Source: Minisyncoccia bacterium (GTDB lineage Bacteria > Patescibacteriota > Minisyncoccia > UBA6257 > JAAZHW01). From it: 64,000 nt of DNA. Shown here in pieces: positions 20,374 through 49,040 of the stretch (positions are counted from its first letter, which is position 1; each line of letters begins with the position of its first letter). The stretch covers positions 8,003-72,002 of the forward strand of contig JBFEPE010000001.1 of the NCBI GenBank assembly GCA_041550235.1, given 5' to 3'. The notes below the pieces were generated by a model, which saw only the letters and a list, made by a program, of their open reading frames with translations, did no database searches and had not been told where the DNA came from. The position numbers and the translations under genes are program-made.

Positions 20374-20386
20374 ATTCAAAAGATTT

Positions 20387-27070: not shown

Positions 27071-27112
27071 ATAATTGCTAAATTATAAATATTTTATAGA
27101 ATTAAAATAATC

Positions 27113-27425
27113 GCCAATGTAGCTCCCGCCGAAGGCGGGCGAAGCAGTTGGTGGAGGTTGGAACATTACGAAGTTGTGTTTCAACCCGTGGTAAGGAGTA
27201 CATTTATTTATATTTTGCCAATGTAGCTCCCGCCGAAGGTGGGCGAAGCAGTTGGTGGAGGTTGGAACATTACGAAGTTGTGTTTCAGCCCATGGTAAGG
27301 AGTATATTTATTTTTATTTTGCCAATGTAGCTCCCTCCGTCGCCAAGGCTATGGAGGGGCATGCAGTTGGTGGAGGTTGGAACATTACGAAGTTGTGTTT
27401 CAACCCATGGTAAGGATTAGATATA
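27113..27425 (+). repeat. Three tandem ~104-bp repeats, each a scrambled tRNA-Thr-like fragment with an embedded GC hairpin
   Basis: Each unit starts gccaatgtagctc (the tRNA-Thr 5' end), carries cccgccgaaggcgggcga and ends c(c/a)tggtaagga(g/t)ta (anticodon loop + 3' stem). Units start at about 27113, 27217 and 27321. Confidence 0.75.
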
Positions 27426-27456
27426 TCTTCTCAAATATTAAAATCTGAAAAAATAT

Positions 27457-27494
27457 GCCAATGTAGCTCAGCTGGTAGAGCAACTCCATGGTAA
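27457..27494 (+). pseudogene. 5' half of a split tRNA-Thr(GGT) gene (acceptor through anticodon loop)
   Basis: gccaatg-ta-gctcagctggtagagc-a-actcc-atggtaa. The 3' partner lies at 45551-45592. Confidence 0.75.
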
Positions 27495-27650
27495 TTTCTC
27501 TCCCGTGATAAGTAGAGTGAAATTAGTTAGAATACAAGAGAAAGTTAATGGATAAGGGGGTTTTAGCGGGGAGGCATCTGGCAAAAATGGGTCGTGGTCG
27601 GTAGATGTAAAAATTATCATTAAACAGCAAAAGGTTATTATATCTCTTTT

Positions 27651-27723
27651 GCCGTTGTAGCTCAGTTGGTAGAGCAACGCCGTGGTAAGGCGTAGGTCAG
27701 CGGTTCAAGTCCGCTCAACGGCT
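27651..27723 (+). tRNA. tRNA-Thr (anticodon GGT), island-borne copy
   Basis: gccgttg/caacggc acceptor. D-arm gctc-agttggta-gagc. Anticodon arm acgcc-gtGGTaa-ggcgt. T-arm agcgg-ttcaagt-ccgct. Discriminator T. Confidence 0.85.
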
Positions 27724-27748
27724 CCTTAAAAAGCATTACAGATTAGTA

Positions 27749-28660
27749 ATGTTTTTTATTATTATGGATATACAAATTTTAGTTCGTAAGTTTTGTGATT
27801 ATTCAACTTTTATTAAAGGATATACTCCGCAAACAATTAAGAGATATAGGCAGACAATTCGTTCCTATATCAAATTCGCTAATATCACTGAAATAGAGGA
27901 AGTGAATTTAGAGAATGTTCGTAATCTTTTTTATTCTGGCCGAACCCAAAGGAATTGGTCAACCAATACCTATATCTGCTACCATAAATCTTTAATTGTT
28001 TTCTTTCGTTGGTGTGTAAGTGAAGGCCACCTTCAATCCAATCCAGCCGAAGAGATTGAAGTGCCGAAACTGGAAAAGAAAATTCCGCCTAAATTAACCA
28101 AGCAAGAAACGATGAGGATATTGGAAGTAGTAGAAAATTATCCTTATATCAATGATTTTTTAAGGCAAAGAAATTATGCTATCTTTGCCACAATCATAAT
28201 GGCAGGATTGAGAAAAAATGAGATTATCAATTTAAGGTGTGTTGATATAGATATTGAAAATCTCTCTATTTTTATTCGGCAGGGGAAAGGAAGTAAGGAT
28301 CGGATTGTGCCAATCAATTACAAATTAGCTGAAATTTTAAGCAAATACGAAAAAGAAAGAAAAAGATTGAAAAAAACTTGCCCCGAATACTTTGTTTCTC
28401 TCTATAAAAATATGGGGATTAGGCATAATGGCTTAAAGTTATTGGTAGAACAAATATCAAAAGCATCGGCGATTAAATTCACTCTTCACAAATTAAGGCA
28501 TACCTTTGCCACAATGATGTTGGAGGGAGGATGTGATATTTATTCTCTCTCTAAAATGATGGGCCATAATGATATAAAAACAACCACAATTTATTTGGCC
28601 GCCAGCATAGAGCATTTAAGAGAACAGATGATTAAACACCCAATGGGAGATGTTTTGTAG
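27749..28660 (+). CDS. Tyrosine site-specific recombinase/integrase (XerC/D-like)
   Basis: C-terminal catalytic box HKLRHTFATMMLEGGCDIYSLSKMMGHNDIKTTTIYL (R..H-R..Y). 303 aa. Adjacent to the tRNA. Confidence 0.9.
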   Translation: MFFIIMDIQILVRKFCDYSTFIKGYTPQTIKRYRQTIRSYIKFANITEIEEVNLENVRNLFYSGRTQRNWSTNTYICYHKSLIVFFRWCVSEGHLQSNPAEEIEVPKLEKKIPPKLTKQETMRILEVVENYPYINDFLRQRNYAIFATIIMAGLRKNEIINLRCVDIDIENLSIFIRQGKGSKDRIVPINYKLAEILSKYEKERKRLKKTCPEYFVSLYKNMGIRHNGLKLLVEQISKASAIKFTLHKLRHTFATMMLEGGCDIYSLSKMMGHNDIKTTTIYLAASIEHLREQMIKHPMGDVL

Positions 28661-28730
28661 GCACTCTTGGATTTACACTTGACTTTTTGTGTGTTTATGG
28701 TTAATATAGTAAGGGAGGTAAAAATAAAAA

Positions 28731-29326
28731 TGTTTACAGAAAAAATAAAAAAGAAAAAAAGAAACATTTCTCAATGCGAATTAACAAGTAGAAGTTCTGA
28801 GAAGCAAAAATCAGAATTAAAAAAGAAAAGAAAGGGATTGGCCAATAAAGACATAAGAAATCTTTTGAAGTTAAGCTCATTTGTTAAGGAGATAATGGAT
28901 TATAATGGTTATAGGGTATTTTTAACTCCAAATGGAGCTGGTGAGATCAGTGGAAGGTTTAAGCAGGTAAAAAGACATATATTAGAGCATAAAATCAAAG
29001 TGAAAACTTCAATACAAAGGTTATTGGAGTATAAAAAAACACTCATAGAAAATGGATCTGGAATAATAGAAAAAGATATTGCCACTATAAACAGAGAAAT
29101 ATATTTTAACTATCATTTATACAAACAAACGAAAAACAGAGAAAAGAGAATTAGAAAAAAGAACAACCCAATAATTGAAGGAATTTCTGAAAGTGGAAAA
29201 GAAAATAGACGACAAAGAAAATTATCAGGAGATGAAGATCAGCAGGTAAGAATAGCTTGGAAAAAATCCCACGATATTATAACCAAAAGTAAAACAAGGA
29301 ATGCTAATCTCAAAAAAGCTAAATAA
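28731..29326 (+). CDS. Hypothetical basic protein (listed ORF from 28667; ATG at 28731 preferred)
   Basis: SD gggaggt precedes 28731. Lys/Arg-rich. No family recognised. Confidence 0.4.
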
Positions 29327-29334
29327 TTAGCACA

Positions 29335-29365
29335 AATCCGTTCTAACTCAGAGCGGATTTTAATT
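29335..29365 (+). terminator. Hairpin terminator
   Basis: aatccgttctaactcagagcggatttt. Confidence 0.5.
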
Positions 29366-29400
29366 TATCTCTTGCCAATAAGAAATTTCGCCGTATAATA

Positions 29401-29592
29401 AAATCAATAATTTAATATGCCTAACCCCTATGATTATTCATAGGGTATGGCGATAAATCCATCCCTGTATTGAGCTCCTCGTTCAGCTTATCAGGGATGG
29501 TCATATTCGGAAACGGATATGGATGATCGCAAGATCGTCAGGTTGGCGGGGAGCTTTGTGTTCCAAGTCAACCACTAAAACCATCCCTAAAT
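29401..29592 (+). ncRNA. Candidate structured cis-regulatory RNA in the 5' leader of the 29593 membrane-protein gene
   Basis: Locally GC-richer. Hairpins ccctatga-ttat-tcataggg; ccatccctg...cagggatgg; tattcg-GAAA-cggata; gatc-GCAA-gatc; ggttg...caacc. A second ccatccc copy abuts the start codon. Confidence 0.4.
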
Positions 29593-30564
29593 ATGAAAAA
29601 CAAAAGCGAAAAATCAGATATATTTGCTCGCATATTCTATATATTTGGTTTTATCCTCAATAGATTATTTTATGTTTTCATTTCTCTATTGGTTATATAT
29701 CTAATTGAAGAATTTGTTTTCAAATCATTAGATATAGCCATTCCTTTTAATAATTTCTTTTGGTGGCTGATTATTTTAGTTAATTTCACAGGATATTTTC
29801 TAAAAATGTTTGGCTGGAAACAAGAAATTAAAATTACCGGCCAAGCATTCATTATCATCTCTTTTGTTTGGATGTGGCTTCAATTTTCCTTTGGTCAATT
29901 CTTAATCTTATTTCCCATTTATTTCTTAACCAAAACAATTGCCGATGTGATTATGATTTTAATAATAAGTTCAGATAAGTTTAATTCCAGTATTAAAGAA
30001 AAAGCCCAGAGAAGAGAAAAAAGCAGATGGATTATCAAAAAAGCTGAAAAGAGAATTTGGTCTGCGAGAGAAGGAGAATGGATTTTCAAGAGAATAAAAG
30101 AATTAACCCAAGAAGAATACCCTAATTTAGAAAAATGGCTTAAAGACGAACCCGAAGATTTTATAGAAAGTATAAAACAAAATGTTTTTATCAATATAGA
30201 GAAAGATATTAAAACAGAGACCGAAGATTTTTTTGAAGAAATTAAAAATCTTTATCTGACAGAAGAGATGAAAATAGCTCTTGATAGGTTAGAAAACGAC
30301 AAAAAAGAAGGCATAACTCGTTTTGAAGGCCTATCCGAAGAAATATCTTTTGACGGCCAAAATACAATTCTTTTTGGAGTAAAACTGACCAAATATCCAA
30401 TCATTGAAGAAAAACTATTATCCAATCCCGAAGTAGTTTATATGAAAGTCCAAGAAGTATCTGAAAAATATCATAACAACAATTACGAAACAGCCATCTC
30501 AATGATTGAAATGGATTTAACCCCTCTTTCAGAAGAAAAAAGAGAGCAATGGTGGAACAGATAG
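29593..30564 (+). CDS. Hypothetical membrane protein (4-5 N-terminal TM helices, acidic cytoplasmic C-terminal domain)
   Basis: Hydrophobic segments LFYVFISLLVIYLI, FWWLIILVNFTGYF and FIIISFVWMWLQF. No family recognised. Confidence 0.5.
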   Translation: MKNKSEKSDIFARIFYIFGFILNRLFYVFISLLVIYLIEEFVFKSLDIAIPFNNFFWWLIILVNFTGYFLKMFGWKQEIKITGQAFIIISFVWMWLQFSFGQFLILFPIYFLTKTIADVIMILIISSDKFNSSIKEKAQRREKSRWIIKKAEKRIWSAREGEWIFKRIKELTQEEYPNLEKWLKDEPEDFIESIKQNVFINIEKDIKTETEDFFEEIKNLYLTEEMKIALDRLENDKKEGITRFEGLSEEISFDGQNTILFGVKLTKYPIIEEKLLSNPEVVYMKVQEVSEKYHNNNYETAISMIEMDLTPLSEEKREQWWNR

Positions 30565-30705
30565 ACCCCATTTGGCACCAAATTGGCACACGGAAAGGGA
30601 TGAGCCAAAAAACATAGGAATATACTCAAATCAAAGAAACAAGCCCAAAAATTGAAAATTTGCCCTCAAATTCGGCACTCCACAGATATATTTCATTGAT
30701 TTCTA

Positions 30706-30774
30706 CCTCAAGAAGAGTAGTATTAGGAATATATAATATCAGAGGATAATAAATCCCAATACTCTTCTTGAGAT
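30706..30774. promoter_or_regulatory. 18-bp inverted repeat upstream of the R-M operon (possible operator)
   Basis: ctcaagaagagtagtattagg ...30 nt... cccaatactcttcttgag. Confidence 0.35.
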
Positions 30775-30837
30775 AGGGATTAAATTTTTAACAAAATCAT
30801 TGATAAATAGTTAAAAATAAGCGATAATATAGATATT

Positions 30838-33216
30838 ATGGATATAAAAATAGTAAATAAATATCTAAGTTCTCAAAAATTGAAAGCAGTGGAAATGCTT
30901 GATTTTGAAAATGGGAAAATAAAGTATTCTGATTTAATTAAACAATACAGGGAAATAAAGAATTTTAAAGGAAATGAAGAAATTGTTAGAGCTTATTTAT
31001 TATCCAAACTTTCTAATGAATTAGGATATAAGTTGGAAAATATTGAAATAGAAAAAGAATATGATATTGGTCGGCCAAAGGTTAATAAGCCAAGAATTGA
31101 TTTAATCGTCAGGGACGATGAAGGAAATGCTTTTCTATATGTTGAATTAAAAAGCCCTGAGGAATATGAAAAAAACAAGGATGAAGTAATTGAAAAACAA
31201 TTATTTGGCTTAACTTCTCAGGAAAAGGGACAAGGAAAAAATGTGAAATATCTTGTTCTCTATTCTTTTGAAATTATAAACGAAGAAATAAAAGATAGAG
31301 CAATTATTATTGATTATGAAAAATATTCATCTTTTGATAAGTGGGAAGAAGAAAGAAATTTTACTGATGAATTGCCAAAAAGATACGGTAAAGCCCAAAA
31401 AGAGCCATACAAAAAAGGTGGCAAAAAAGACTTGAGAGCCGATTTTGCTCCCGAAGAATTAGAAGCAAAAAGAAAAAATCTTCATAATGTTTTATGGGGT
31501 GGGGGCGGAACAGACGATAACGAAATCTTTGCCTCTTTGGTAAGAATTATTTTAGCTAAAATTCAAGATGAAACTGAAAGAAAAAATGGTGAAAAATATG
31601 AATTTCAGATTTTTTCTTTTCAAGACGGGGATAGCTTTGAAAGTAATGAAGAAATTTTTGAAAGAATAAATAAACTTTACAGAAGGGCTTTGAAGGAAAA
31701 AATGTATATTACCGATGAAAACAAGATAGAAAAATCTTTTGTTATTGATGAAAACAAGTTTTCTATTAGTAAATTAAAATATACTATTTCCGAGTTAGAA
31801 GAATATTCTTTTGTTGATGGAAAAGATAGCTTTAATGGAAAGGATATTTTAGGCCAATTTTTTGAGGGTATTGTCCGAGACGGCTTTAAGCAAAATAAAG
31901 GGCAATTCTTTACTCATTCTAATATTGTCCAATTTATCCTTTATGCCCTTCAATTAGATAAATTGGCGATAGAAAGAATAAATAAAGATAAAGAAATTCC
32001 TTATTTGATTGATCCTTCGGCTGGAAGCGGAACATTTTTGATTGAGTATATGAATTTTATTACTCAAAACATTAAATACAAACAAAAAGATAAATTAGAT
32101 AATAACCGAGATATTGAAGATAAATTCAATGACTGGTTTATGCCTTATAATAGAGAGAATAAATGGGCTAAAGATTTTATCTATGGCGTAGAACATAACT
32201 TTGATTTAGGAACTGCCTCAAAAGTTAATATGATTTTACACGGAGACGGCTCAACAAATATTTTTGTTAAAGACGGACTTCTTCCTTTTAATTACTATAC
32301 CAAAGACAAAGGAGTTAATATTCTTGATGATGAGAAAGAAGATAAAGAATATTTTGATAAGAATATCAACGGAAAATTTGATGCTATTATTACTAATCCG
32401 CCTTTCTCGGTGGATTTAGATAAAGATACTAAAAAAACACTAAAAGATAGTTTTGTTTTTGGGGATAAGAAAAATTCTGAAAATCTTTTTGTTGAAAGGT
32501 GGTATCAATTATTAAAAGAGAATGGAAGATTGGGAGCAGTCTTGCCTGAAAGTGTTTTTGATACTACGGAAAATAAATATATTAGATTATTTTTATATAA
32601 ATATTTTAAAATAAAGGCGGTTGTTTCTTTGCCTCAATTAGCTTTTCAGCCCTATACTTCCACTAAAACCAGCTTGCTTTTTGCCCAAAAGAAAACCCAA
32701 GAAGAAATTAAAAAATGGGATGAATTATGGGCGACTTATTCTAAGGATTATAGTCAATTAAAAACAAGGGTAGAAAAAGAGGTAGAACATTTTATCAAAG
32801 GAAAAGAAATTCAAAAGAGTTGGGCTATTGCTAAAGAAACAGAGAAAAGAAGAAAGGATAATGTTCTTTATCTTCTTAATCAAGTTATAGATAGAAAGAT
32901 TGATTTAGATTTATCTCTTCAAGAATTGGTTGAAAAATATCAAGACGAAATAATAGATCTGTTGAAAATAGAGAAAGAAACAGATGTTTTTGGCTTTGTT
33001 AATGCTTGGTGGGTATTTGGTGCTGTTTCTAAAGAATTGGATTATCCAATCTTTATGGCCGAAGTTGAAAATGTTGGTTATAAAAGGACAATAAGAGGAT
33101 TAAAACCAATGCCAAATGATTTATTCAGAAGGAATGAAAATGGCGAAATTATGATTGATGATAATAAAAAAGAAACCGCTTTAGATTTTATGAGGTCGGA
33201 TGTGGAGTGGGATTAA
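30838..33216 (+). CDS. Fused restriction-modification enzyme: N-terminal PD-(D/E)XK nuclease + gamma-class N6-adenine DNA methyltransferase (Type IIG/IIB A-subunit-like)
   Basis: PRIDLIV...FLYVELK (D...ExK). MTase motif I LIDPSAGSGTFL. Motif IV AIITNPPFS. HsdM-like VVSLPQLAFQPYTSTKTSLLF. 792 aa. Confidence 0.8.
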   Translation: MDIKIVNKYLSSQKLKAVEMLDFENGKIKYSDLIKQYREIKNFKGNEEIVRAYLLSKLSNELGYKLENIEIEKEYDIGRPKVNKPRIDLIVRDDEGNAFLYVELKSPEEYEKNKDEVIEKQLFGLTSQEKGQGKNVKYLVLYSFEIINEEIKDRAIIIDYEKYSSFDKWEEERNFTDELPKRYGKAQKEPYKKGGKKDLRADFAPEELEAKRKNLHNVLWGGGGTDDNEIFASLVRIILAKIQDETERKNGEKYEFQIFSFQDGDSFESNEEIFERINKLYRRALKEKMYITDENKIEKSFVIDENKFSISKLKYTISELEEYSFVDGKDSFNGKDILGQFFEGIVRDGFKQNKGQFFTHSNIVQFILYALQLDKLAIERINKDKEIPYLIDPSAGSGTFLIEYMNFITQNIKYKQKDKLDNNRDIEDKFNDWFMPYNRENKWAKDFIYGVEHNFDLGTASKVNMILHGDGSTNIFVKDGLLPFNYYTKDKGVNILDDEKEDKEYFDKNINGKFDAIITNPPFSVDLDKDTKKTLKDSFVFGDKKNSENLFVERWYQLLKENGRLGAVLPESVFDTTENKYIRLFLYKYFKIKAVVSLPQLAFQPYTSTKTSLLFAQKKTQEEIKKWDELWATYSKDYSQLKTRVEKEVEHFIKGKEIQKSWAIAKETEKRRKDNVLYLLNQVIDRKIDLDLSLQELVEKYQDEIIDLLKIEKETDVFGFVNAWWVFGAVSKELDYPIFMAEVENVGYKRTIRGLKPMPNDLFRRNENGEIMIDDNKKETALDFMRSDVEWD

Positions 33217-34672
33217 AAAAACTATGGGAAACAACCAAACTTCAGAAAAAATAAAAATAGAGATAAAAGATGTTATGCCTGACTTTAAAGAGCATTTATC
33301 ATTAAAAGGAAATGATAGAGTGTTTTTTTCTGGTAAATTTGGAATTGGAAAGAGTTATTTCTTAAAAGAATTTTTTAGATTAGGAGAGGAAAACTATGAG
33401 GTTTTTTATCTATTACCAACGAGGTATCAAATAAGTCCCAATGAAGATATTTTAGATTTTATAAAATACGATGTTTTAGTTGATTTAATAAATAAAAATA
33501 AAGAAATTTTTAAAGGCAACAATTTTAATAGCTTTATAGATCTAAAAAGATTGTTTTATATTTGGGGCAAGGATAATTTTTACGAGATTTTTAAAAAGGG
33601 GTTAGATTTTATTCCAAAATTAGGCAAACCTTTAAAAGAAGTCGTTAATTTAATTGATAATTTTAGAAATTTCAAATACGAAGTTGAATTAGGCGACAAG
33701 GGTTTTGTAGATAATTACATCAAGGAAATAAAGTCCAAAGATATAGTTGAAAGCGATCATTTAAGTTATTTATTAACTGAAAAAATAAACAATTTAAAAG
33801 GAGAAAAAGAAAGTGTTTTGATAATAGACGATTTAGATAGAATTGACCCAGACAATATTTTTAGAATTTTAAATATTTTTTCTGTTTATTTCAACGAAGA
33901 TAATTCTGAAATGCCTAATAAATTTGGTTTTGATAGGATTATTTTTGTTGGCGACCATAAAAATATAAGAAGTATTTTTAACCATAAATATGGAGAAAAT
34001 ACCGATTTCAGAGGTTATTTCAATAAATTTTTTAGATATAAAATTTATGAATTTGATAACGACAAGGCTATAGAAAATGCTGTAAGTATATTGATAGATA
34101 GTATGAAAGAAGTTGGAATAAATGTATCAAAAATTTTTGAAAAATTAGGATACGGCAGGCTTTTATTGGAAGATGTTTTAAAGAGATCAATAAATTTAAA
34201 ATCAAATAAAGAAAAGGTTAATTTAAGGCAACTTTTAAATGTTTATCTTTTTCCAAGTCTTCATTTAAAAGATAACAAATACTATAACGATCAATTTCTC
34301 TCTATTGCTAAGAAAATGATCCAATTTATAGATTTATCAATTAAGTTTTTAATTGATATTTTTGGTGGAGATGAAAAATTTTTGATAGAAGTTTTGAATA
34401 AGATAATTCTTGAATCTGGATTTTATAAAAATCAAAATTATAGAGATGACCTCTATAATCATTATTCAAGAGCTATATTAAGTGAGATTTTAAATAAAAA
34501 TTTTGTAAAAGATAGTAATAATCCTGCGGAAGAAAAGTGGGAAGAAAATTTAGGTAATGTTATAGGGAATGTGGCCGGAGGCCCTGAATTAAAAGTATTT
34601 TATACCTTGTTAATTAAATACTTAGAAAGTGGTAAATATAAAAAGGATAGTATTAGAAATTATGATTTATAG
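33200..34672 (+). CDS. KAP-family P-loop NTPase
   Basis: Walker A FSGKFGIGKSYFLKEF. KAP-type Walker B VLIIDDLDRIDPDNIF. 490 aa. Overlaps the preceding gene by 17 nt. Confidence 0.65.
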   Translation: MWSGIKKTMGNNQTSEKIKIEIKDVMPDFKEHLSLKGNDRVFFSGKFGIGKSYFLKEFFRLGEENYEVFYLLPTRYQISPNEDILDFIKYDVLVDLINKNKEIFKGNNFNSFIDLKRLFYIWGKDNFYEIFKKGLDFIPKLGKPLKEVVNLIDNFRNFKYEVELGDKGFVDNYIKEIKSKDIVESDHLSYLLTEKINNLKGEKESVLIIDDLDRIDPDNIFRILNIFSVYFNEDNSEMPNKFGFDRIIFVGDHKNIRSIFNHKYGENTDFRGYFNKFFRYKIYEFDNDKAIENAVSILIDSMKEVGINVSKIFEKLGYGRLLLEDVLKRSINLKSNKEKVNLRQLLNVYLFPSLHLKDNKYYNDQFLSIAKKMIQFIDLSIKFLIDIFGGDEKFLIEVLNKIILESGFYKNQNYRDDLYNHYSRAILSEILNKNFVKDSNNPAEEKWEENLGNVIGNVAGGPELKVFYTLLIKYLESGKYKKDSIRNYDL

Positions 34673-34681
34673 AGAATTAAA

Positions 34682-36124: not shown

Positions 36125-36152
36125 AATTCGGGGTGAGGGTTTTTGTAAAAAT

Positions 36153-37706: not shown

Positions 37707-37715
37707 ATAAAAACT

Positions 37716-38603
37716 ATGACAAAAAAAGAGAATGATTTGTTTATAAACGATTTTCCAATGGTAAATTCAGATGAAGAATTAGAAGAATTATCATTACAAT
37801 ACCCAAAATATGATCCATATTATATAGCCAGTGGCTCAATAAAGGACAGAAAAGAGTATTTTGAAAAACTTTGGAAGATTTATAGAAACTATGCTGATAA
37901 GCATTTTTTGAAAGAAGTTAAAACCAATTTTCATCAGAGGAGTTGGGAGATGTATTTATCTAATTTATTTATTGAAAATGGATTTGAAATTTCCTCTAAA
38001 GATAAGGGGCCTGATATAAAAATTGATTTGGGAGATAGGAATTTATGGATAGAATGCGTGGCTTCAAAAAAAGGCGAGAAATCTGATAAGGTTCCAGATA
38101 TGATGTATGAGGTTGTTCAAGATGTGCCAGCAGATAAAATGTTATTAAGAATAACCAACTCAATAGATAAAAAATTTAAGAAATATCAAAAATATGTGAA
38201 AGACAGCATAATAAAAAAAGGGGATTATTATATTATTGCTGTGAATGCCGGAGGGTTTGGATATATTGTTGATACAGATATGCCTTTAATTCTTAAATGT
38301 TTAATTTCTATTGGTTTTTGGAGTTATAAAAAATTAGAAGATGGATCATTTAGTAAGCCATTTCTTAGCAGGAGAGAATATATAGAAAAACAAAACAAGA
38401 AAAAAGTAAAAATGAATTATTTTGAAGATAAGAAATATAATGGAATTAGCGGAGTTATCTATACTCCAAACAATGTTCTAAATTTAAGAGATAAAGATGA
38501 TTGTATATTTATTAGCAATCCCTTGGCTAAAAATGAGTTGCCAAAAAGTTATTTACCATTTATTCGTGAAGTCAAAATAACAAAAGATAAAATAATTTTT
38601 TAA
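37716..38603 (+). CDS. Hypothetical protein with possible PD-(D/E)XK nuclease core
   Basis: GPDIKIDLGDRNLWIECVASKKG resembles a D...E.K active-site arrangement. Otherwise unrecognised. Confidence 0.4.
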   Translation: MTKKENDLFINDFPMVNSDEELEELSLQYPKYDPYYIASGSIKDRKEYFEKLWKIYRNYADKHFLKEVKTNFHQRSWEMYLSNLFIENGFEISSKDKGPDIKIDLGDRNLWIECVASKKGEKSDKVPDMMYEVVQDVPADKMLLRITNSIDKKFKKYQKYVKDSIIKKGDYYIIAVNAGGFGYIVDTDMPLILKCLISIGFWSYKKLEDGSFSKPFLSRREYIEKQNKKKVKMNYFEDKKYNGISGVIYTPNNVLNLRDKDDCIFISNPLAKNELPKSYLPFIREVKITKDKIIF

Positions 38604-38612
38604 TACGAAAAT

Positions 38613-39065
38613 ATGATAAAAATAAGAAACAAAAAAATTGAAGTTTTGGTTGCCTATACTACTCCCGAAATGTGGGATGCTGTTGAAGATACAAAAATAG
38701 CAGTTCAGGGCCAAAGTGCCAAAGACGCTGATTATTTTGCTTTTGCGAGAATGGGATTAAAAGAAAATAAAGGAAGAGCGATAATTACTCATATTGCCGA
38801 AATTGGCAAAACAAAATCAAATGTTCCAGTTGAAGAATATATTAAAAAATTTCCTAAATTATCAGAATACTTTAGAAAAAGAAATTGGAATGGTTTTAGT
38901 AAGGAATACTATTTAGAGAATATCCGAGAATTAAAAAATCCCATTTATCATAAAATAGGCGACAAAGCCAAGGGAAGAGTAAGATTTTATACAAATTTGA
39001 ATGAGTTAAAAAATGCTAATTTTATGAGGGATATTAAAACATTAAGTCAGTTAAATAAAAGATAA
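38613..39065 (+). CDS. Hypothetical protein (150 aa)
   Basis: Tightly linked within the operon (10-nt gap). No family recognised. Confidence 0.4.
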   Translation: MIKIRNKKIEVLVAYTTPEMWDAVEDTKIAVQGQSAKDADYFAFARMGLKENKGRAIITHIAEIGKTKSNVPVEEYIKKFPKLSEYFRKRNWNGFSKEYYLENIRELKNPIYHKIGDKAKGRVRFYTNLNELKNANFMRDIKTLSQLNKR

Positions 39066-39321
39066 AAATATGGTAGTTTATTATGGTCCGCCAGATATGA
39101 GCGGGATTGAAAAAGAAATAGAGAAATCAAATTCTTCATCTACTCGTTATAACAAGAAAATGCTTTGGGTGGCTGTGGCAACTTTGATTTTTACCATTAT
39201 CGCAGTGGCTATAAGTGCTTATTTAATACTTTGATTTTTTCAATAATTGGTTTAGAAATTTTATTGTTAGAATTTTTATTAAAGTTGAAAATCATAAAGA
39301 AATTAAAAAACATTAAAAACT

Positions 39322-41454
39322 ATGGAAATATCACAATTATTATCAGCAATAAACAAAAAAGAAATAGTCGTTCCTGAGTTCCAAAGAGAATATGTTTGGA
39401 GATTAGAACAAGCAAAAGAATTGATGACTTCTCTGTTTAAGGATTATCCAACAGGAAGTATTTTAGTTTGGCCAACAAATAAACCGCCAAAGATAAAAAA
39501 CAATGCTGTTGATATTAAAGATATTGGGACGGTTAGGGTTTTATTAGATGGCCAACAGAGATTAACCACTTTATATCTCTTAATTAAAGGACAAATTCCG
39601 CCATATTACAGAGAAGACGACATAACGAATGATCCAAGACATTTATATTTCAATTTAGAAACAGGAGATTTCAACTACTATCAAAAACAAAAAATGGAAG
39701 GGAACTCTTTTTGGAAAAGAGTTGTTGATTGTTTCAATGATGATTTTGATATTTTTTCTTTGGAAAATGATATAAAAGAAAAAGGTGGAGATTTTTCTGA
39801 ATTAGGGAGAAAAATAAACAATAACATTGGAAAATTAAAAAGTATTTTAAGAGAAGATTATCATATTCAACAAGTTCCCGATGGGGTAGAAATTGATGAA
39901 GCTATTGATATTTTTGATAGAGTTAATTCAAAAGGAACAAAACTTACTGATGCCGAGCTTGTTTTAACTCATATCGCTGGAAAATGGCCGGAAGTTAGAG
40001 AGAAGATGAAAGAAAGCATAAGAGAATATAGAAAAACTGGTTTTGATTTTAGTTTAGATTTTCTAACAAGATGTATGACAATAATTATTACCAAATCAGC
40101 CCTCTTTGAAAAAATGAATGATGAGATTTATAAGAATACAAGAGAAGAAGATTATAAAGAAAAATGGAAAAATCTAACCAAGATATTTAATTATTTGCTT
40201 CCAATCTTAAAAGAAAATGGTTATATAAACGGAAGTGGAGATTTAAGCACTAATAATGTTTTAGTTCCAATAGTTGCCTATATTTCTCAAAATTCTTTTT
40301 CTTTTCCAAATACTCCAATTAGAAACTATTTCTTATACTGGATGTTTTTGGCTTCTGTTTGGGGCCGATATAGTAGCCGAACCGACCAAAGTTTAGACAG
40401 AGATGTTTATCTTGCTATAAACAGCCAAAATCCGATAGATGACTTACTTAAAGAAATAGAAGACCAAAGGGGAAGATTAGAGGTAAAACAAGCAGATTTA
40501 GAAGGGAGAGGATCGGCACACCCGCTCTATAAAATGCTTGGAATTTTGGCTCGGTATAATAAGGCGATTGACTGGAAGAATGGCGGATCTCTCAATGAAA
40601 CATTAGGAGAAGAATATGCTATTCATAGTCATCATATTTTTCCACAAGGTCTTTTATATAAAAATGGATATACTTCCGATAATCATTTAGATAAAAAAAT
40701 TGTTAATGAGATAGCAAATAGGGCTTTTATAACAAGAGATGCCAACCTTGATATTTCAGACAAGAAACCGCTTGATTATCTAAGAGAAATAAAGAAAAAA
40801 TATCCCGAAGCTCTAAAACAGCAATTTATACCTGAATTTGAAAATTTATGGGATATAGGCAAATTTAGAGATTTTTTGGCCGAAAGAAGAATTTTAATAG
40901 CTCAATCTATAAATGATTTTCTTGATAATCTAAAAGCTGAAGGTGAAAAGATAGAGATTGATAGAGTTGATTATGAAAAGATTATAGAAAGAGGAGAAGA
41001 CAATTACATAGAGTTCAAATCTTCTTTAAGGTGGGATATGAATAGAAATACAACTAACTCAGATTTAAAAAAAGAAATAGCCAAAGCAATGTCAGCCTTT
41101 ATGAATACGGAAGGAGGCAGATTATTTATTGGAGTTAATGATGAGGGTGAAATTTTAGGATTAGATAATGATTATAAGACATTAGGAACACGACAAAATA
41201 AAGACGGATTTCTTCAAAAAATGGATCAGGTAGTTGAAAATTACTTAGGAAGGGAATTTTTTGAGTATATTAGCATTAAGATAATAAAAATAGATGATAA
41301 GGATGTCTGTTTAGTTGAATTAACTAATAGCGGAAAACCTGTCTATCTGAAATTAAAAGACAAAGAGGAGTTTTATATTAGGGGATCAGCCTCTTCTCGT
41401 CCATTAAGTTTGAGTGAAGCCAATGAATATATTAAAAATCATTCTTGGGAATAA
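39322..41454 (+). CDS. GmrSD-like Type IV restriction-type protein: DUF262 (ParB-like NTPase/nuclease) + DUF1524 (His-Me/HNH) + C-terminal Schlafen/AlbA_2 domain
   Basis: N-terminal VVPEFQREYVW (DUF262). Central EYAIHSHHIFPQGLL...NRAFITRDANLDISDK (DUF1524). C-terminal IEFKSSLRWD...AFMNTEGGRLFIGVNDEGEILGL (AlbA_2). Confidence 0.75.
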   Translation: MEISQLLSAINKKEIVVPEFQREYVWRLEQAKELMTSLFKDYPTGSILVWPTNKPPKIKNNAVDIKDIGTVRVLLDGQQRLTTLYLLIKGQIPPYYREDDITNDPRHLYFNLETGDFNYYQKQKMEGNSFWKRVVDCFNDDFDIFSLENDIKEKGGDFSELGRKINNNIGKLKSILREDYHIQQVPDGVEIDEAIDIFDRVNSKGTKLTDAELVLTHIAGKWPEVREKMKESIREYRKTGFDFSLDFLTRCMTIIITKSALFEKMNDEIYKNTREEDYKEKWKNLTKIFNYLLPILKENGYINGSGDLSTNNVLVPIVAYISQNSFSFPNTPIRNYFLYWMFLASVWGRYSSRTDQSLDRDVYLAINSQNPIDDLLKEIEDQRGRLEVKQADLEGRGSAHPLYKMLGILARYNKAIDWKNGGSLNETLGEEYAIHSHHIFPQGLLYKNGYTSDNHLDKKIVNEIANRAFITRDANLDISDKKPLDYLREIKKKYPEALKQQFIPEFENLWDIGKFRDFLAERRILIAQSINDFLDNLKAEGEKIEIDRVDYEKIIERGEDNYIEFKSSLRWDMNRNTTNSDLKKEIAKAMSAFMNTEGGRLFIGVNDEGEILGLDNDYKTLGTRQNKDGFLQKMDQVVENYLGREFFEYISIKIIKIDDKDVCLVELTNSGKPVYLKLKDKEEFYIRGSASSRPLSLSEANEYIKNHSWE

Positions 41455-41690
41455 TTATGCTATCAAAATAAGAAACAAAAAATTTTATCAAAAAGCATAT
41501 AGGGATAATTTTGATGAAGAAATTATTAGAAAAGAAATAGGCAAAACAGGTGTTAGAATAACCAATTTATTTGAGAGAGTTTTTGGCCTATTTAAATTAA
41601 AATAAATAGAATAGAATGGATTATTATTGAGAGAAAAGAATTAAAAAACTGATAATTGAAACCAGTTTTTAATACTCCGAAATTAAACCA

Positions 41691-42575
41691 TCAGTCATCA
41701 TCCACCAAATCAGTCTCAAAAATCGCATAAATCGGATAATGGTCTGAAATGTCTTCAATCAAATCTTGGTCCGTAATCCCGTATTCTTGGTCAAAGTAAA
41801 AGACACTGGCTGTATTGGTTGAGTATTCAGAGAAATAAGTGTCTGCCTTCATAACAATCCGGTCATAAGTCCAGTCGGTTTTAGTCATTGTATCCATATC
41901 ATTACTGATTACCCAGTAATGATTTATTGTTTTGAAGGGATTTGTTGTTGTATTTTCATCAAAATAACTTCCATCGGCATTAAAGTCTCCCATTACAATA
42001 ATATCTTTTTCATTGGGATTTTGAGAAAGAATATAATTATATACATCTTCTAAATGGGCTATTTCTCTGTTTGTATCATCGGGTTTAGTGTGAATCCCTG
42101 CTAATGTAAAATCAAAATCTCCACTTCTGAAAGAAGCAATATATGGTTCTCTCTCAAAAACATTTCTTATGTCATTATAGATATAATCAGAGCCAGTAAT
42201 AAAATTTACCTTGTCTGTATTATAGAAGTAAGCATAAGATTCTTTACTATTTGTTCTTCCTACCCCCTCGCTTTTTACAAAGGCATATTTATCAGAGCCA
42301 ATATCTTCATTTATCTTTTCTAAATAATAATCTGCTGTTTCTTCTTGGGCATCTCTTATTTCCTGAACCAACATAATATCAAATTCTTGAGCTATTTTAA
42401 CTAATTGCTCCATTACTTCGGGCTTATTTCTTTTTGTTTCCCCAAATATCTGAATGTTAAAAGCCCCCACCTTGATTGGACCGGGAAGAGTAGATTGACT
42501 TGTTCCAAAGAATACAAGAACTCCAGCCAAAATTGCTGGAATTATGATTTTTAATAATTTTTTGATATTAAACAT
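41691..42575 (-). CDS. Secreted/membrane-anchored endonuclease-exonuclease-phosphatase (DNase I-like) family nuclease
   Basis: N-terminal signal/TM. EEP motifs GAFNIQIFG, MLVQE, GIHTKP, GDFNA and SDHYP. Confidence 0.75.
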   Translation of the reverse strand: MFNIKKLLKIIIPAILAGVLVFFGTSQSTLPGPIKVGAFNIQIFGETKRNKPEVMEQLVKIAQEFDIMLVQEIRDAQEETADYYLEKINEDIGSDKYAFVKSEGVGRTNSKESYAYFYNTDKVNFITGSDYIYNDIRNVFEREPYIASFRSGDFDFTLAGIHTKPDDTNREIAHLEDVYNYILSQNPNEKDIIVMGDFNADGSYFDENTTTNPFKTINHYWVISNDMDTMTKTDWTYDRIVMKADTYFSEYSTNTASVFYFDQEYGITDQDLIEDISDHYPIYAIFETDLVDDD

Positions 42576-42581
42576 AACTTT

Positions 42582-42815
42582 TTAATGAATTCTATCTCTT
42601 GGTGGCATTGGATCTTTCCCATAACTATCTTTATCCTGTATTTTTCCATCTTTCCCGTGAATTATATGTTCTACTTCATCTTTTTTGGCTTGTTTAATGG
42701 ATGCTTTTATTGCCCGATCTTTTGTTGAATGAGAAGAAAGAGGGGTTTTTCTTCCTTCTTGGATTGTTCGCCACCCTCCATCCTTATATGTTGTGTGAAT
42801 GTTTTTCTTAGGCAT
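42582..42815 (-). CDS. Small hypothetical protein (DUF2188-like?)
   Basis: YKDGGWRTIQEG...AIKASIKQAKKD resembles small KGGW proteins. Weak. Confidence 0.35.
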   Translation of the reverse strand: MPKKNIHTTYKDGGWRTIQEGRKTPLSSHSTKDRAIKASIKQAKKDEVEHIIHGKDGKIQDKDSYGKDPMPPRDRIH

Positions 42816-42936
42816 AATTTTTATTTAATTAACGACCTTTGTAAAAATCCGAAAACTGAATTACTTCCGATTTTTATAAATCCTTGAATTAGATTTGCTT
42901 TTATTATATCAGAATTAGTGTTAAAGTTAAACCAAT

Positions 42937-43131
42937 ATGCTAACAGATAAAGAAATAGATGATTTTATTGAGTTATACAAGAAAAAATTTGGAAAAGAAA
43001 TTGGCAGAGAAGAGGCGATTAGAAAAGGGGCAAAATTAGTTCGGCTTGTAGAAGCTATTTTGAAACCTAAAGATAGTAATCCTAAAAAAGCGGAACATAT
43101 TATTGATGAAAGCCACAAAAAACCTATTTAA
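42937..43131 (+). CDS. Small hypothetical protein (64 aa), possible DNA-binding
   Basis: Helical, basic. Located upstream of the iteron-like repeats. Confidence 0.3.
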   Translation: MLTDKEIDDFIELYKKKFGKEIGREEAIRKGAKLVRLVEAILKPKDSNPKKAEHIIDESHKKPI

Positions 43132-43169
43132 TAAATGGGTTTTTGTTTATTTTTTATGATAAAAGTAAT

Positions 43170-43465
43170 AAAAAAATGCTGGCTACTACTGGCTACGCGA
43201 GGGGGTAATGACAAAAAATACTTAAATTTTTAAGTGATTGGGAAAACTTAATATCAAAACCTAAAAAAGCAAGTAAATAAAAGGTTTTTTCTATTTTTTA
43301 GGTCAAAATAATTATCAAAAAAATGATGGCTACTAATGGCTACAAGAAGGGATTATAAAATAAAAAATCTTGGAAAATCTTGGAAATTTGAGGGGGTATG
43401 ACAACATAGGTAGTGCTGTTTTTTTGTTTGCCCTATTGATTTTTTAGGGTAAAATAAGGTTATAA
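43170..43465. repeat. Two ~140-bp tandem units each with paired TGGCTAC iteron-like direct repeats spaced 10 bp
   Basis: tggctactactggctac (43180-43196) and tggctactaatggctac (43326-43342). Further shared blocks gggggta(a)tgacaa and tttt(t)agg(g)t(c/a)aaataa. Confidence 0.65.
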
Positions 43466-43480
43466 TTTTGTTAACAAAAA

Positions 43481-44308
43481 ATGAAAGATAATAAAGAAAA
43501 CAAAAAATCCTATTTAACTCAAGGAGATAAGAAATTATTGATATCTTTTAGAAGATTTTTGAAAAGAGAGCCAGTTTTATTAAAAATTCAAGATTTAAGA
43601 AAGAAATATGATATACCAAAAAATGGATTAAAAAAGAATGAAGTTTTTAAGCCAAATGAAGATGGATATCAAATCTATGTGGGAGATTTTGATTTTCCAA
43701 TCAGGATTGATTTTAATTCCGCCCTTAGAAAAGATATTAAAGAATATCTTCTTGAAGAATTTCCTGTAAAATCTAATTTTATTATACATCTAACGAAGAT
43801 GTTTATTTTGTATAACAACATTGATGATTATATAGATTTTGATAAATCCAAAGAAGAAGTTGATTTAGAATTATTTAACATATTTGATTTAGTTGATGAT
43901 ATGGAGATAGGTTATGATGTTATGAATGATCGTGATGCTGGGACTGGTCAAATTCACGGCTTTATTGAAGAAATAATGAATAGAGGAATGGAATATCCAA
44001 TTTCAATAGGAATACCAAACGGAGCCACTAAAAGGGATTTATTAGAATATATAAAGAAAAATTGGAATAAAATTGAAAAATTAAGAAATTCCAAAAAAGA
44101 AAATAAAAAATGGTTAGCCGTAAGAAAAAGTAATCCCGAGATTGAGAGAAGAGATGATTTTATTTATAAGCATAGAAAAAAATCATTAAAAGAAATAAAG
44201 GATTTAGTTATAGAAAAATTTGAAGGAAGTTTAGATGGCGATAGAAGGATTTTATATACTTGGCAAATTAAAAATATAATTGATAGAGAAAAGAAAAAAA
44301 GGAGCTAA
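43481..44308 (+). CDS. Hypothetical protein (275 aa) upstream of second integrase
   Basis: No family recognised. Lys-rich termini. Confidence 0.45.
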   Translation: MKDNKENKKSYLTQGDKKLLISFRRFLKREPVLLKIQDLRKKYDIPKNGLKKNEVFKPNEDGYQIYVGDFDFPIRIDFNSALRKDIKEYLLEEFPVKSNFIIHLTKMFILYNNIDDYIDFDKSKEEVDLELFNIFDLVDDMEIGYDVMNDRDAGTGQIHGFIEEIMNRGMEYPISIGIPNGATKRDLLEYIKKNWNKIEKLRNSKKENKKWLAVRKSNPEIERRDDFIYKHRKKSLKEIKDLVIEKFEGSLDGDRRILYTWQIKNIIDREKKKRS

Positions 44309-44417
44309 GTGTATCACACTTAGTTTTTAGTGCCATTTCGTTTTATTTCTTAAAATCTGGTTAATAATCAGATTTTTTTATTTTTCAAGAAATATCTGAT
44401 TTAAGATTTTAGGAAAT

Positions 44418-45344
44418 ATGAAAGATCTATTTGAACAATTTATAAAACAGCAAGAATATGTTGAAAGGAAAAGAAAAAAGACGATAGAAAATTATCGGCA
44501 GAATTTTAATTTATTGTTTGGCTTTAAGCCTGATTTGAAATTGGAAGATTTAACCGAAGAAACAATGATTGATTTCTTTGAGTATCTTGATACAAGGGAA
44601 AGAAGGGTCGGAAAGAAAATGATTGTTAGAAAAATTAAAAATTCCAGTATCGCCACAATAAGAGGAAAATTAGAGGTATTTTTTAGGTGGTTAGTTGATA
44701 GGGAGCATATCAAATCTAATCCATTTGAAAAAATACCATACCCGGAAGTTTCCTACACAAGCAAAGAGGCTTTCACGAAAGAGGAATTTGATAAAATTTT
44801 TATAAACATCGTTAGAGATATTAAATGGGTCAATGATTTTTTGCGAAAAAGAAACACAGCAATGATAATGACTTTAGTATTAACTGGGATAAGAAGAGAA
44901 GAGTTATTAGAATTAAAGCTGTCTGATATTGATTGGAAGAATAAAAAAATAACAATTAGAGATGAAACTTCTAAATCTAAAAGAACAAGAACTATTCCTA
45001 TGTCGCCAGATTTGAGGCCATTTTTAGAGGATTATTTAATAACCAGAACTAATAAGAAAAATAGTTTTCTTTGGGTCAATGGCAGAGATGAAAAATTTAC
45101 TGAACACGGCTGGAAGCATCTTGTTAAAAAACTAAAAGAAGAAACAGAAACTAATTTCCGCACCCATAGATTTAGACATACATTTGCTTGTAATTATTAT
45201 CGGCAGAGAAAAGATCCGGTTGGATTACAAAAAATGATGGGACATCAAGATATTAAAACTACTTTTAAGGTATATTTGCGATCCATAGATGATGATGATT
45301 TAACAAAAGAAATGAATAAATTTAAGATTTCTAAGTTTTATTAA
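44418..45344 (+). CDS. Tyrosine site-specific recombinase/integrase (second copy, divergent from 27749)
   Basis: HRFRHTFACNYYRQRKDPVGLQKMMGHQDIKTTFKVYL. N-terminal SAM-like core-binding domain. 308 aa. Confidence 0.9.
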   Translation: MKDLFEQFIKQQEYVERKRKKTIENYRQNFNLLFGFKPDLKLEDLTEETMIDFFEYLDTRERRVGKKMIVRKIKNSSIATIRGKLEVFFRWLVDREHIKSNPFEKIPYPEVSYTSKEAFTKEEFDKIFINIVRDIKWVNDFLRKRNTAMIMTLVLTGIRREELLELKLSDIDWKNKKITIRDETSKSKRTRTIPMSPDLRPFLEDYLITRTNKKNSFLWVNGRDEKFTEHGWKHLVKKLKEETETNFRTHRFRHTFACNYYRQRKDPVGLQKMMGHQDIKTTFKVYLRSIDDDDLTKEMNKFKISKFY

Positions 45345-45550
45345 AAATGGTCTTGCTAAAGTAAAATGTATCCGCTATTATTGAAGCATCTTAACAATTA
45401 AACAGCTTTTCTTTTTTGCTTTTTAGGGTCTTTTTTCCAAATGAGCGAAATTGGTAAATGGGTCGTGCTAAAAACCAAGTGTTTTGAGTGAAAATCCCCA
45501 TTTTATCAGGTTTTATCGGCATTTTTAGAGAAAAAGGGTGGAGCTGTTTA

Positions 45551-45592
45551 ATGGTAAGGAGTAGGTCAGCGGTTCAAGTCCGCTCATTGGCT
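45551..45592 (+). pseudogene. 3' half of the split tRNA-Thr(GGT) gene
   Basis: atggtaa-ggagt-aggtc-agcgg-ttcaagt-ccgct-cattggc-t. Complements the 5' half at 27457-27494 (gccaatg/cattggc, actcc/ggagt). Confidence 0.75.
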
Positions 45593-45599
45593 CTTTTAG

Positions 45600-45625
45600 A
45601 GAGATTGATTAAATCTCTTTTTTTG
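45600..45625 (+). terminator. Hairpin terminator after the tRNA 3' half
   Basis: agagattgattaaatctct + ttttttg. Confidence 0.45.
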
Positions 45626-46928: not shown

Positions 46929-47371
46929 ATATAGTCCCCGATACTAATTTGTTATTAAAGGGATTATTGTTTAGGGGTGATGCTAGACAAATAATCAATT
47001 TAGCTTATTCAAAAAAAATAAACCTTTATGGGAGTAAGGGCTCTTTTGAGGAGATAAAGAGAGTCGTTTATTATAAAAATTTTAAAAAATATCTTGAAAA
47101 AGAAATTTATACGCCAGAGAAATTAATTGTTTCTTATAGATCATTAATTAATATAGCTACAATAAACAAAAATTATAAAGATTTGAAAGTTGTAAAAGAT
47201 GATCCAGACGATGATGAATTCTTAAAAATAGCAAAGACAATAGAATCGCAGATCATAATATCTAGCGATAAGCATTTAAGAAGAATCGAAAAATATGATG
47301 ATATCAGAATAATAGAGCCAGAGATTTTTATTAAAATTTACCCTAAAATATTAGGCAGAAAATTCATTTAA
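46925..47371 (+). CDS. PIN-domain nuclease
   Basis: MNIVPDTNLLL (first acidic residue), DDPDDDEFL, ISSDKHL. Start overlaps the upstream gene (ATGA). Confidence 0.7.
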   Translation: MNIVPDTNLLLKGLLFRGDARQIINLAYSKKINLYGSKGSFEEIKRVVYYKNFKKYLEKEIYTPEKLIVSYRSLINIATINKNYKDLKVVKDDPDDDEFLKIAKTIESQIIISSDKHLRRIEKYDDIRIIEPEIFIKIYPKILGRKFI

Positions 47372-48022: not shown

Positions 48023-48281
48023 ATTAATATTATACTATAATAATAGATTTAATGACATACTTACTCTTAAATAGTGAAAGACGGCGAGCAATCTTGTCGC
48101 TTTGTTGATTTAATAATACCATAATTAAAGATAATATAAAGTCTAAAATTCCAGAAGTAATTATTTAGAGAATTAAGCATTCAAAAATTTAGTATTTTTA
48201 ATATTATATAGATTGCTTTTTATTGTCAGATTTTTTATTTATCAAATTTGCCATAATAATACAGGCAAATTTATTTTATTT

Positions 48282-48371
48282 AAAAATATGTTAAAATATA
48301 TAAATATTTAGAGGGCAAAAGCCCCTGCTCTATTTGTGTCGAGATGGGGCTTTTATTATTAAATTAAAAAT
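48282..48371 (+). repeat. Copy 2 of the direct repeat plus hairpin cassette
   Basis: aaaaatatgttaaaatatataaatatttagagggcaaaagcccctgctct; perfect stem aaaagcccc/ggggctttt, then attattaaattaaaaatATG. Confidence 0.75.
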
Positions 48372-48677: not shown

Positions 48678-48701
48678 TATGAATTATTATATCAAAACAA
48701 T

Positions 48702-48932: not shown

Positions 48933-49040
48933 TTTTATGAGTTTTTTGAATAAAATTTTGTTTTAAGTGGCTTGATTTATGGGATATATAATATAATATA
49001 AGAACACTCATAGTGTTATGAGGTTTGTTATAATTAGAAA

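Follow-up and report, generated by a model that had tools for sequence, protein, structure and literature searches.

How does a bacterium keep a gene for tRNA-Thr(GGT) when that gene lies in two pieces about 18 kb apart? The question is raised by positions 27113-45625 of a 64,000-nt stretch of DNA from a Minisyncoccia bacterium (contig JBFEPE010000001.1, assembly GCA_041550235.1), hereafter the window. The nearest genome is a 'Candidatus Paceibacteria' metagenome-assembled genome, and the host is a bacterium of the Patescibacteria/candidate phyla radiation (CPR). The window and a set of related loci, cited by our own handles (L001, L002 and so on), indicate that an island of 18 kb (27495-45550) sits in the anticodon loop of the tRNA-Thr gene and splits it into two apparently dead halves. 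We consider it very probable that this island is an integrated member of a family with two recombinases, that it entered by recombination between a short core and the host tRNA-Thr(GGT) gene, and that it carries its own tRNA gene as cargo and replacement. By sequence comparison, the family seems to be widespread in Patescibacteria and is apparently undescribed.

Both halves of the host gene lie on the plus strand. The 5' half (nt 1-38), which is attL, occupies 27457-27494 and reads GCCAATGTAGCTCAGCTGGTAGAGCAACTCC followed by the core ATGGTAA (27488-27494), after which non-tRNA DNA begins. At attR (45551-45592), non-tRNA DNA gives way to a second ATGGTAA (45551-45557) and the 3' half, GGAGTAGGTCAGCGGTTCAAGTCCGCTCATTGGCT (45558-45592), and a terminator-like hairpin with a T-run reaches to ~45625. 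Joined through a single ATGGTAA, with the host attB junction AACTCC-ATGGTAA-GGAGTAGG, the halves form a 73-nt sequence that ARAGORN calls as tRNA-Thr(GGT) and in which the acceptor stem (7 bp) and the anticodon stem (5 bp) are both perfect. This bears out the initial annotation, which had read the two pieces as one canonical tRNA-Thr(GGT) at these coordinates and the repeated heptamer as a 7-bp core duplication: identity between the junctions is exactly 7 bp, and the flanking bases differ (C/A before, T/G after). ARAGORN and Rfam, run over the 64-kb window, return one tRNA, a tRNA-Thr(GGT) at 27651-27723/5, and ARAGORN calls none at either island junction. The T-arm 14-mer GGTTCAAGTCCGCT has two sites in the window (0.09 expected), one in the 45551-45592 half and the other in the intact tRNA.

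That intact tRNA gene is cargo of the island. It lies on the plus strand at 27651-27723 (Rfam score 69.5 bits), has no intron, and has the anticodon loop GTGGTAA (27682-27688). It differs from the joined host tRNA at 8 of 73 positions, six of which make up three compensated pairs, two in the acceptor stem (4:69 and 5:68) and one in the anticodon stem (29:41). Because the three stem pairs are altered on both sides, a hybrid with either half does not explain the cargo tRNA, whose stems match neither. The description of this gene as intact and compensatorily different was therefore correct, and the further claim that it is genuinely foreign holds for the locus but not in the sense of a remote origin, since 65/73 positions are shared and the T-arm is identical. 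A weak promoter-like site (27614-27641, from a consensus scan) precedes the gene, and a terminator-like hairpin (27731-27752) follows it, with a T-run that abuts the start of the first recombinase gene.

The same architecture recurs elsewhere. Three complete islands could be read: that of the window, one of 9 kb in L086 (also in L087 and L088), and one of 13.6 kb on the 957-kb contig Ga0265297_10000004 (L089+L083). All share a backbone of host 5' half, left arm (~130-155 nt), cargo tRNA-Thr(GGT), the recombinase gene int1, cargo that includes the RNA motif LOOT, a second recombinase gene int2, right arm (~200 nt), ATGGTAA and host 3' half. Only int1, int2, the tRNA and LOOT are common to the three, and no cargo open reading frame (ORF) is. 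The sister islands have TIM-TPR in the left flank versus MurD in the window, and each interrupts its own host tRNA sequence, the halves complementing each other and not the cargo tRNA. At the right junctions of L003, L083/L084, L085 and L086, int2 is followed by ~200 nt, then GGTRGRRCTRTTTA-ATGGTAA, then a tRNA-Thr(GGT) 3' half that differs in sequence among these loci and in which ARAGORN calls no tRNA; the junctions of L003 and L085 match that of the window. For the island of L089+L083 there is an exact empty site. In L100 and L101, where TPR is 91-93% identical and the order TIM-FBA-TPR is kept, an intact tRNA-Thr(GGT) stands right after TPR, 73/73 identical to the joined sister halves; tRNA-Tyr comes next, and there is no integrase. 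This empty site and the recurrence of the architecture in independent Patescibacteria genomes sustain the earlier view of a mobile island in an anticodon loop.

Both arms of the island align with those of other family members. The left arm, the P' side of attP (27495-27650, plus strand), can be aligned to its counterparts in L086, C957 and the attP contigs L102/L103. It is not tRNA-like past the core, and it holds the conserved motif AAATGGGTCGT (27585-27595) and the conserved blocks GAATTGC and TAAATRGGTC(G/A)TCC. The right arm, the P side (45345-45550, plus strand), has GGTAAATGGGTC at 45445-45456 and GGTGGAGCTGTTTA at 45537-45550, and an eight-way alignment gives it the invariant blocks CTTAACAATTAAATAG, GGTAAATRGGTC and GGTRGRNCTRTTTA. 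It also contains the single inverted repeat near a junction, of 32 nt and 72%. The right arm ends in 14 nt that line up column by column with tRNA nt 18-31, from the D-loop to the anticodon; these may be the mimic of a core-type half-site or the remains of a decayed 5' half. No tRNA fragment that could restore a hybrid gene is kept in attP, where this 14-nt mimic of nt 18-31 is all that remains. The predicted attP junction of the window island is GAGCTGTTTA-ATGGTAA-TTTCTCTCC. Junctions of this type occur in short contigs of the family: L102 and L103/L104 run from int2 through the right arm, one ATGGTAA, the left arm and the cargo tRNA to int1. Their sequence marks these contigs as circles or tandem junctions, and both of these arise when the core recombines. 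In L005, int2, junction and int1 adjoin in the same way, with ATGGCA as the core and a tRNA lacking. L102 carries a cargo tRNA that matches the host tRNA of L086 at 72/73 positions, which identifies cargo tRNAs as captured genes of Patescibacteria.

The two recombinases deserve a closer look. The product of int1 (27764-28660, plus strand) is a Xer-like tyrosine recombinase of 298 aa with a PF00589 match at 1e-29 and a SAM-like N domain; the ORF call begins at 27749, and the conserved MDIQIL makes 27764 the likely true start. The product of int2 (44418-45344, plus strand) is a second tyrosine recombinase (PF00589, 2e-31). In pairwise comparison the two are 29% identical, in agreement with the initial annotation of two different recombinases, one at each end. 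The best NCBIfam matches of int1 are to XerA/XerC/XerD, at 172 and 167 bits against cut-offs of 335 and 330, and the Xer scores of int2 (113 and 109 bits) are also below the cut-offs. We rejected an identity as XerC/XerD chromosome-dimer resolvases on these scores, far below the equivalog cut-offs, and on the site, a tRNA anticodon loop and not dif. The int1 protein is far more conserved than int2, with more than 120 Patescibacteria cluster representatives at 64-76% identity, while int2 homologues on Patescibacteria contigs are at 50-57%; the two genes occur on the same contig at least 14 times. The int1 ATG abuts the T-run of the post-tRNA hairpin in every member, and the order of tRNA, hairpin and ATG is common to L086, L089, L102 and L103. 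In all five independent loci that reach chromosomal DNA (the window, L003, L083/L084, L085 and L086), int2 (homologues at 52-57%), ~200 nt, ATGGTAA and a tRNA-Thr(GGT) 3' half follow one another, so that int2 appears to be the recombinase that tracks the tRNA-Thr(GGT) junction. Exact-protein searches with int1, int2 and the right-flank protein of the window gave no match, and scans of IMG/VR with the intron motif described below, with int1 alone and with the int1 alignment found no close relatives, which places the family outside that viral collection.

How might such an element move? The circular form would carry, in order, int2, the right arm, ATGGTAA, the left arm, tRNA-Thr(GGT), int1, cargo, LOOT and further cargo. 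Integration would join the 7-bp core of attP to the identical anticodon-loop heptamer (nt 32-38) of the chromosomal tRNA-Thr(GGT) gene, with the ~14 nt left of the attP core acting as a mimic of tRNA nt 18-31. Since the sequence right of the core is not tRNA-like, two dead halves would be left and no hybrid gene rebuilt. Decoding of ACY codons (ACU/ACC) could then be kept up by the complete tRNA-Thr(GGT) located ~130-155 nt inside the left end. The variable int2 may be the target-specific recombinase and so set the choice of target, and the conserved int1 may be a common partner, the two forming a XerC/XerD-like heterotetramer on an asymmetric site. The TAAATRGGTC motifs in both arms, which resemble the AGGTC of the tRNA variable loop and T-stem, are candidate accessory binding sites, and transcription that reads through the hairpin downstream of the cargo tRNA might express int1. 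For the host, the benefit may be the island's load of defence genes.

The cargo copy may avoid its own recombinase through an altered core: an intron at position 36/37 in four members, or the loop GTGGTAA in the window. The cargo tRNAs of L086, L089, L102 and L103 have an intron of 191-222 nt at 36/37 (ATGGT|G...G|AAGGAG), which in these four members lies inside the 7-bp crossover core; the cargo tRNA of the window has none. Since the intron takes the place of the right half-site in the core, the cargo gene does not resemble attB as a substrate. The Rfam group I model RF00028 did not match the introns of the sister islands, not even when a 291-nt slice was searched at E<=10, and because the model misses them we built a fold by hand. 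This group-I-type fold has 40/40 pairs in the four sequences, 13 of them compensated, and is reached by 0/500 shuffles, although it was drawn from those same four sequences and its core helices are invariant. In this fold a U·G pair marks the 5' splice site, the guide (C/U)UUGCC base-pairs with each exon, helices P2-P9 include a P3/P7 pseudoknot, and the last base is G. A 2026 paper described 'divergent group I introns' at 36/37 of tRNA-Thr(GGU) in 3 of 95 complete Patescibacteria genomes (PMC13011429; Castelle et al. 2018 cited there), which escape detection by RF00028 and ARAGORN, and which it mentions without integrases, islands or split host copies.

We tentatively go one step further and propose a case of tRNA replacement with self-immunity, in which the host tRNA-Thr(GGT) is knocked out and the cell depends on the disarmed island copy, LOOT is functional in the element, and int1 and int2 form a new heteromeric tRNA-targeting pair. 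If so, it would account for the odd 'divergent' introns in the tRNA-Thr(GGU) of Patescibacteria and would be a bacterial case in favour of introns as a defence of tRNA genes against integrases. Randau and Söll are said to have proposed in 2008 that introns and splits protect tRNA genes from integrating elements. An addiction effect would also follow, as loss of the island by any route other than precise excision would mean loss of ACY (ACU/ACC) decoding, and LOOT would have a role, for example in the control of recombination or expression.

Several observations weigh against the account of an integrated island with a replacement tRNA. No empty site was found for the window's own island among its near relatives, which are L001 and L002 only. 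L001, the sole exact-protein match of MurD, is the same strain, and its contig breaks inside the first of three tandem units that lie upstream of the 5' half; L002, the one relative given by a MurD scan of genome contigs (MurD 93%, the nearest), is syntenic with the window up to 27105 and stops there. The missing empty site is explained by this divergence and this break. An uninterrupted tRNA in relatives, the lack of which would have counted against the mobile insertion of the initial annotation, was thus found for the sister island in L100/L101 but not at the MurD locus, and the excised form likewise has its junction in other members of the family but not in the window island, for which no circular junction was found; the attP-type contigs could, moreover, be junctions of tandem arrays and not circles. 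The cargo tRNA of the window departs from a perfect attB at only one base of the core and one pair of a stem, which weakens the case for self-immunity here. The model also leaves the three tandem units without an explanation.

Some of these observations would also suit an island that integrated as described and is now an immobile relic, decaying and fixed, with the tandem units as debris of earlier rearrangements. The lack of an empty site or circle for the window island, the complex tRNA-derived repeat array at its left edge and the low GC that continues to its right as far as ~49 kb all point that way. However, both recombinase ORFs are full length, with the catalytic columns R..HxxR..H..Y (R-H-R-H/W-Y) invariant in 32-sequence alignments, the two cores are identical and undamaged, and the family motifs persist in the arms. 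We therefore regard loss of mobility as unlikely, while granting it some weight.

Might there be two elements here, side by side or one inside the other, with int1 and the tRNA belonging to the first and int2 to the second? Recombinases that are so dissimilar, with int1 relatives apparently more numerous than those of int2, would speak for separate elements, and tandem arrays at tRNA genes are known (PMC4383910). Yet the DNA between int1 and int2 contains neither an internal att-like repeat nor a third fragment of a tRNA, and each of the three complete islands has a single int1 at the left and a single int2 at the right. Judged by the sister empty site, the whole segment comes and goes as one, and in the attP-type contigs int1 and int2 flank a single core. 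Two elements are accordingly an improbable explanation.

Less probable still, and in our judgement very doubtful, is a conventional island in which the tRNA at 27651 is a regenerated hybrid, 45552-45596 is the displaced 3' fragment, and the half at 27457 is an unrelated relic. An integrase next to an intact tRNA, together with a downstream 3' fragment of 91% identity over 45 nt, is indeed the signature on which island finders rely (PMC4383910), but the 3' fragment mismatches the 5' part of the intact tRNA at three stem positions and pairs perfectly with the half at 27457. In addition, the sister halves equal the uninterrupted gene of relatives, and the attP contigs have the complete cargo tRNA ~130 nt from the core, with no 3' fragment abutting that core. 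We rejected the hybrid on the grounds of stem complementarity. An ancient, fixed split or permuted tRNA, with ordinary chromosome between halves that are joined as RNA in the manner of Nanoarchaeum, deserves almost no credence, for although the split arrangement is present in several genomes, close relatives of one carrier have the whole gene in an exact empty site, the DNA between the halves is entirely different in each genome and lower in GC than the flank, a complete copy of the tRNA is present, and no inverted repeat links the junction regions, the island ends being without extended complementarity apart from the repeat within the right arm.

The integrated two-recombinase island with its replacement tRNA can now be set beside known systems. 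Insertion into an anticodon loop, which the initial annotation called unusual, is not, because anticodon-centred crossover is the commonest sublocation in the Islander collection, with an anticodon-centred attP in 2083 of 3919 tRNA/tmRNA islands (PMC4383910). Carriage of a whole tRNA gene was rightly singled out, as it departs from the rule in the same collection that attP holds a tRNA fragment and that integration restores a functional gene (PMC4383910). Like islands of the anticodon 'A' sublocation (Williams 2002; PMC4383910), the window family inserts in a tRNA gene by crossover in the 7-nt anticodon loop and has short end repeats, a recombinase beside the att sites, variable cargo, and attB, attL, attR and attP forms within the family. 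Unlike them, it has no functional tRNA fragment abutting the attP core, so that dead 5' and 3' halves remain, it carries a complete tRNA gene 130-155 nt from the core, and where they have one integrase it has two recombinases of Xer size, neither with an obvious arm-binding domain. The departure from known islands is this combination of a non-restoring attP, a whole replacement gene and paired recombinases.

With XerC/XerD pairs and integrative mobile elements exploiting Xer (IMEX), int1 and int2 share the pattern of two paralogous tyrosine recombinases of ~300 aa with SAM-like core-binding domains, and the asymmetric core would fit one protein per half-site, as in XerC/XerD pairs. They differ from those pairs in being element-borne and not host genes and in having a tRNA as target instead of dif, and a heteromeric action is what we infer for them. 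The introns of the sister cargo tRNAs match the 'divergent group I introns' (PMC13011429) in their position at 36/37 and in being missed by RF00028 and ARAGORN, whereas here the intron-bearing gene is island cargo beside int1 and the intron lies inside the crossover core. Split tRNA genes also come in two pieces, and an intron exactly at the integration core is a further likeness; in contrast, the split here is caused by an element and reversed in relatives, has no trans-splicing signals, is bacterial, and goes with a group I and not a bulge-helix-bulge (BHB) intron. A trans-spliced split tRNA of the Nanoarchaeum type was rejected on the evidence given above. We found no prior description of such Patescibacteria islands in the searchable literature, coverage of which is incomplete.

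The family matters for several reasons. It breaks the textbook rule, relied on by island-finding software, that an island rebuilds the gene it cuts; software that pairs the intact tRNA with the 3' fragment would draw the left border ~190 nt inside its true position and overlook the dead 5' half. With more than 120 int1 representatives (above 64%) and a cargo of defence genes, it appears to be abundant in Patescibacteria and is probably a main route of defence-system exchange among these bacteria of tiny genome. It also supplies a genomic setting for the divergent group I intron of tRNA-Thr(GGU) and for the orphan Rfam motif LOOT, and its two recombinases and defined 7-bp target make up a small system that is open to direct testing.

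The initial annotation let the island region start at 27113, which takes in the three tandem units (27113-27216, 27217-27320 and 27321-27435, plus strand) that its account leaves undescribed and unexplained. These ~104/115-nt units are derived from tRNA-Thr and form an array with a period of 104, 2.8 copies and 90% match in TRF. Each unit begins with tRNA nt 1-13 (GCCAATGTAGCTC) and continues with a GC hairpin, CAGTTGGTGGAG, a second hairpin, C(A/G)TGGTAAGGAGTA and an AT-rich spacer; CAGTTGGTGGAG is D-loop-like and has the GGTGGAG of the island, not the GGTAGAG of the host. The plus strand folds at z -3.0 to -3.9 relative to shuffles, better than the minus strand, and the few differences in the stems are G-U-preserving or compensatory. 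The units are not tRNAs according to ARAGORN, with or without the 3' half and with introns allowed; they match no Rfam family, and nhmmer found no homologue in more than 100 related loci except L001, the same organism. A promoter-like site, TTGCTA-16-TAGAAT (27075-27102, plus strand; consensus scan only), lies just 5' of the first unit and is possibly the original host tRNA promoter. Unit 1 sits at the expected place of the host tRNA, after this site and the end of synteny with L002. We considered that the units may be attR-type relics of older elements whose right arm had a fuller 5' half, a miniature element repeated core to core, or a functional RNA resembling a tRNA minihelix. Of these we favour, with low confidence, attR-like relics that earlier elements of the family left behind and that unequal recombination between one core and another has multiplied.

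Repeated tRNA ends are also seen at the empty-site loci. Downstream of tRNA-Tyr(GTA), L100 and L101 have one or two units of ~170-190 nt (L100 11140-11300; L101 11095-11262 and 11300-11480), which start with GGATTCGAAC, the reverse complement of a T-arm, and end with AAATCCCTCCCGGCCCA, a copy of the tRNA-Tyr 3' end. These units are possibly a small element or repeat that duplicates the tRNA end, analogous to the tandem units of the window. In L083, ~9 kb (11200-20360) that includes genes for a 2110-aa surface-type protein and an ABC transporter lie between the tRNA-Thr 3' half and tRNA-Tyr. As these two tRNA genes are just 36 nt apart in L100/L101, a second insertion has taken place at the same hotspot in the 957-kb genome.

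More distant int2 relatives (36-40%) in L006 (2046-2440), L008 (1444-1700) and L011 (712-1000) are followed by 3' parts of other tRNAs, with the loops CTCTTAA in L008 and TTGCAAT in L011. They have a shifted arm motif, GAAACAGGYC, and in L006 the next gene is int1-like, with a start at ~2432. Judging from these loci, the two-recombinase design may extend to other tRNA targets. L009, in which a 34% int2 relative lies beside an intact tRNA-Thr(GGT), was rejected as a family member; it has no int1 neighbour and is probably a conventional relative.

The variable cargo (28667-44308, mixed strands) was assigned with Pfam and PADLOC and consists mostly of anti-phage defence genes. It includes genes for a type I/IIG-like N6-methyltransferase (MTase; 30838-33216), a KAP NTPase (33200-34672), an S-subunit-like protein (34682-36124), a UvrD/GajB-like helicase (36099-37706), a PD-T7-5-like protein (37716-38603), a GmrSD-N+Schlafen/HEC-05 protein (39322-41454) and, on the minus strand, an EEP nuclease (41691-42575) and a DUF2188 protein (42582-42815), with several further ORFs that have no family assignment. 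GC is 24-30% inside the island versus 32-35% in the left flank.

LOOT RNA (RF03000) matches at 29418-29539 on the plus strand with 86.6 bits against a gathering threshold of 46.4, over model positions 1-121. One copy, on the recombinase strand, is present in every readable island of the family, including the L083/L089 island (L086 8087-8208, L003 844-965, L085 4955-5067, L089 14193-14313), and none is present at the empty-site loci L100/L101. From this distribution LOOT looks like a component of the element backbone and not a free-standing small RNA.

Low GC (25-29%) runs on to the right of the island (45717-49000), through a gene for a 403-aa protein without a family match, a PIN-domain gene (46925-47371) and small ORFs; this segment may be further foreign DNA or a toxin-antitoxin patch beside the tRNA site. 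Elsewhere in the window, the 23S rRNA match (15016-19428) covers 4413 nt against a model of 2925 positions, which implies ~1.5 kb of insertions in the gene, as expected for Patescibacteria rRNA introns, and 5S rRNA lies at 20259-20375. Repeats of 40-100 nt occur at 58885-58986, 59655-59751, 3836-3876 and 54828-54867 of the window and at 1382-1491 and 4924-5027 of L002, and their differing places in the two suggest a small dispersed repeat family of the lineage.

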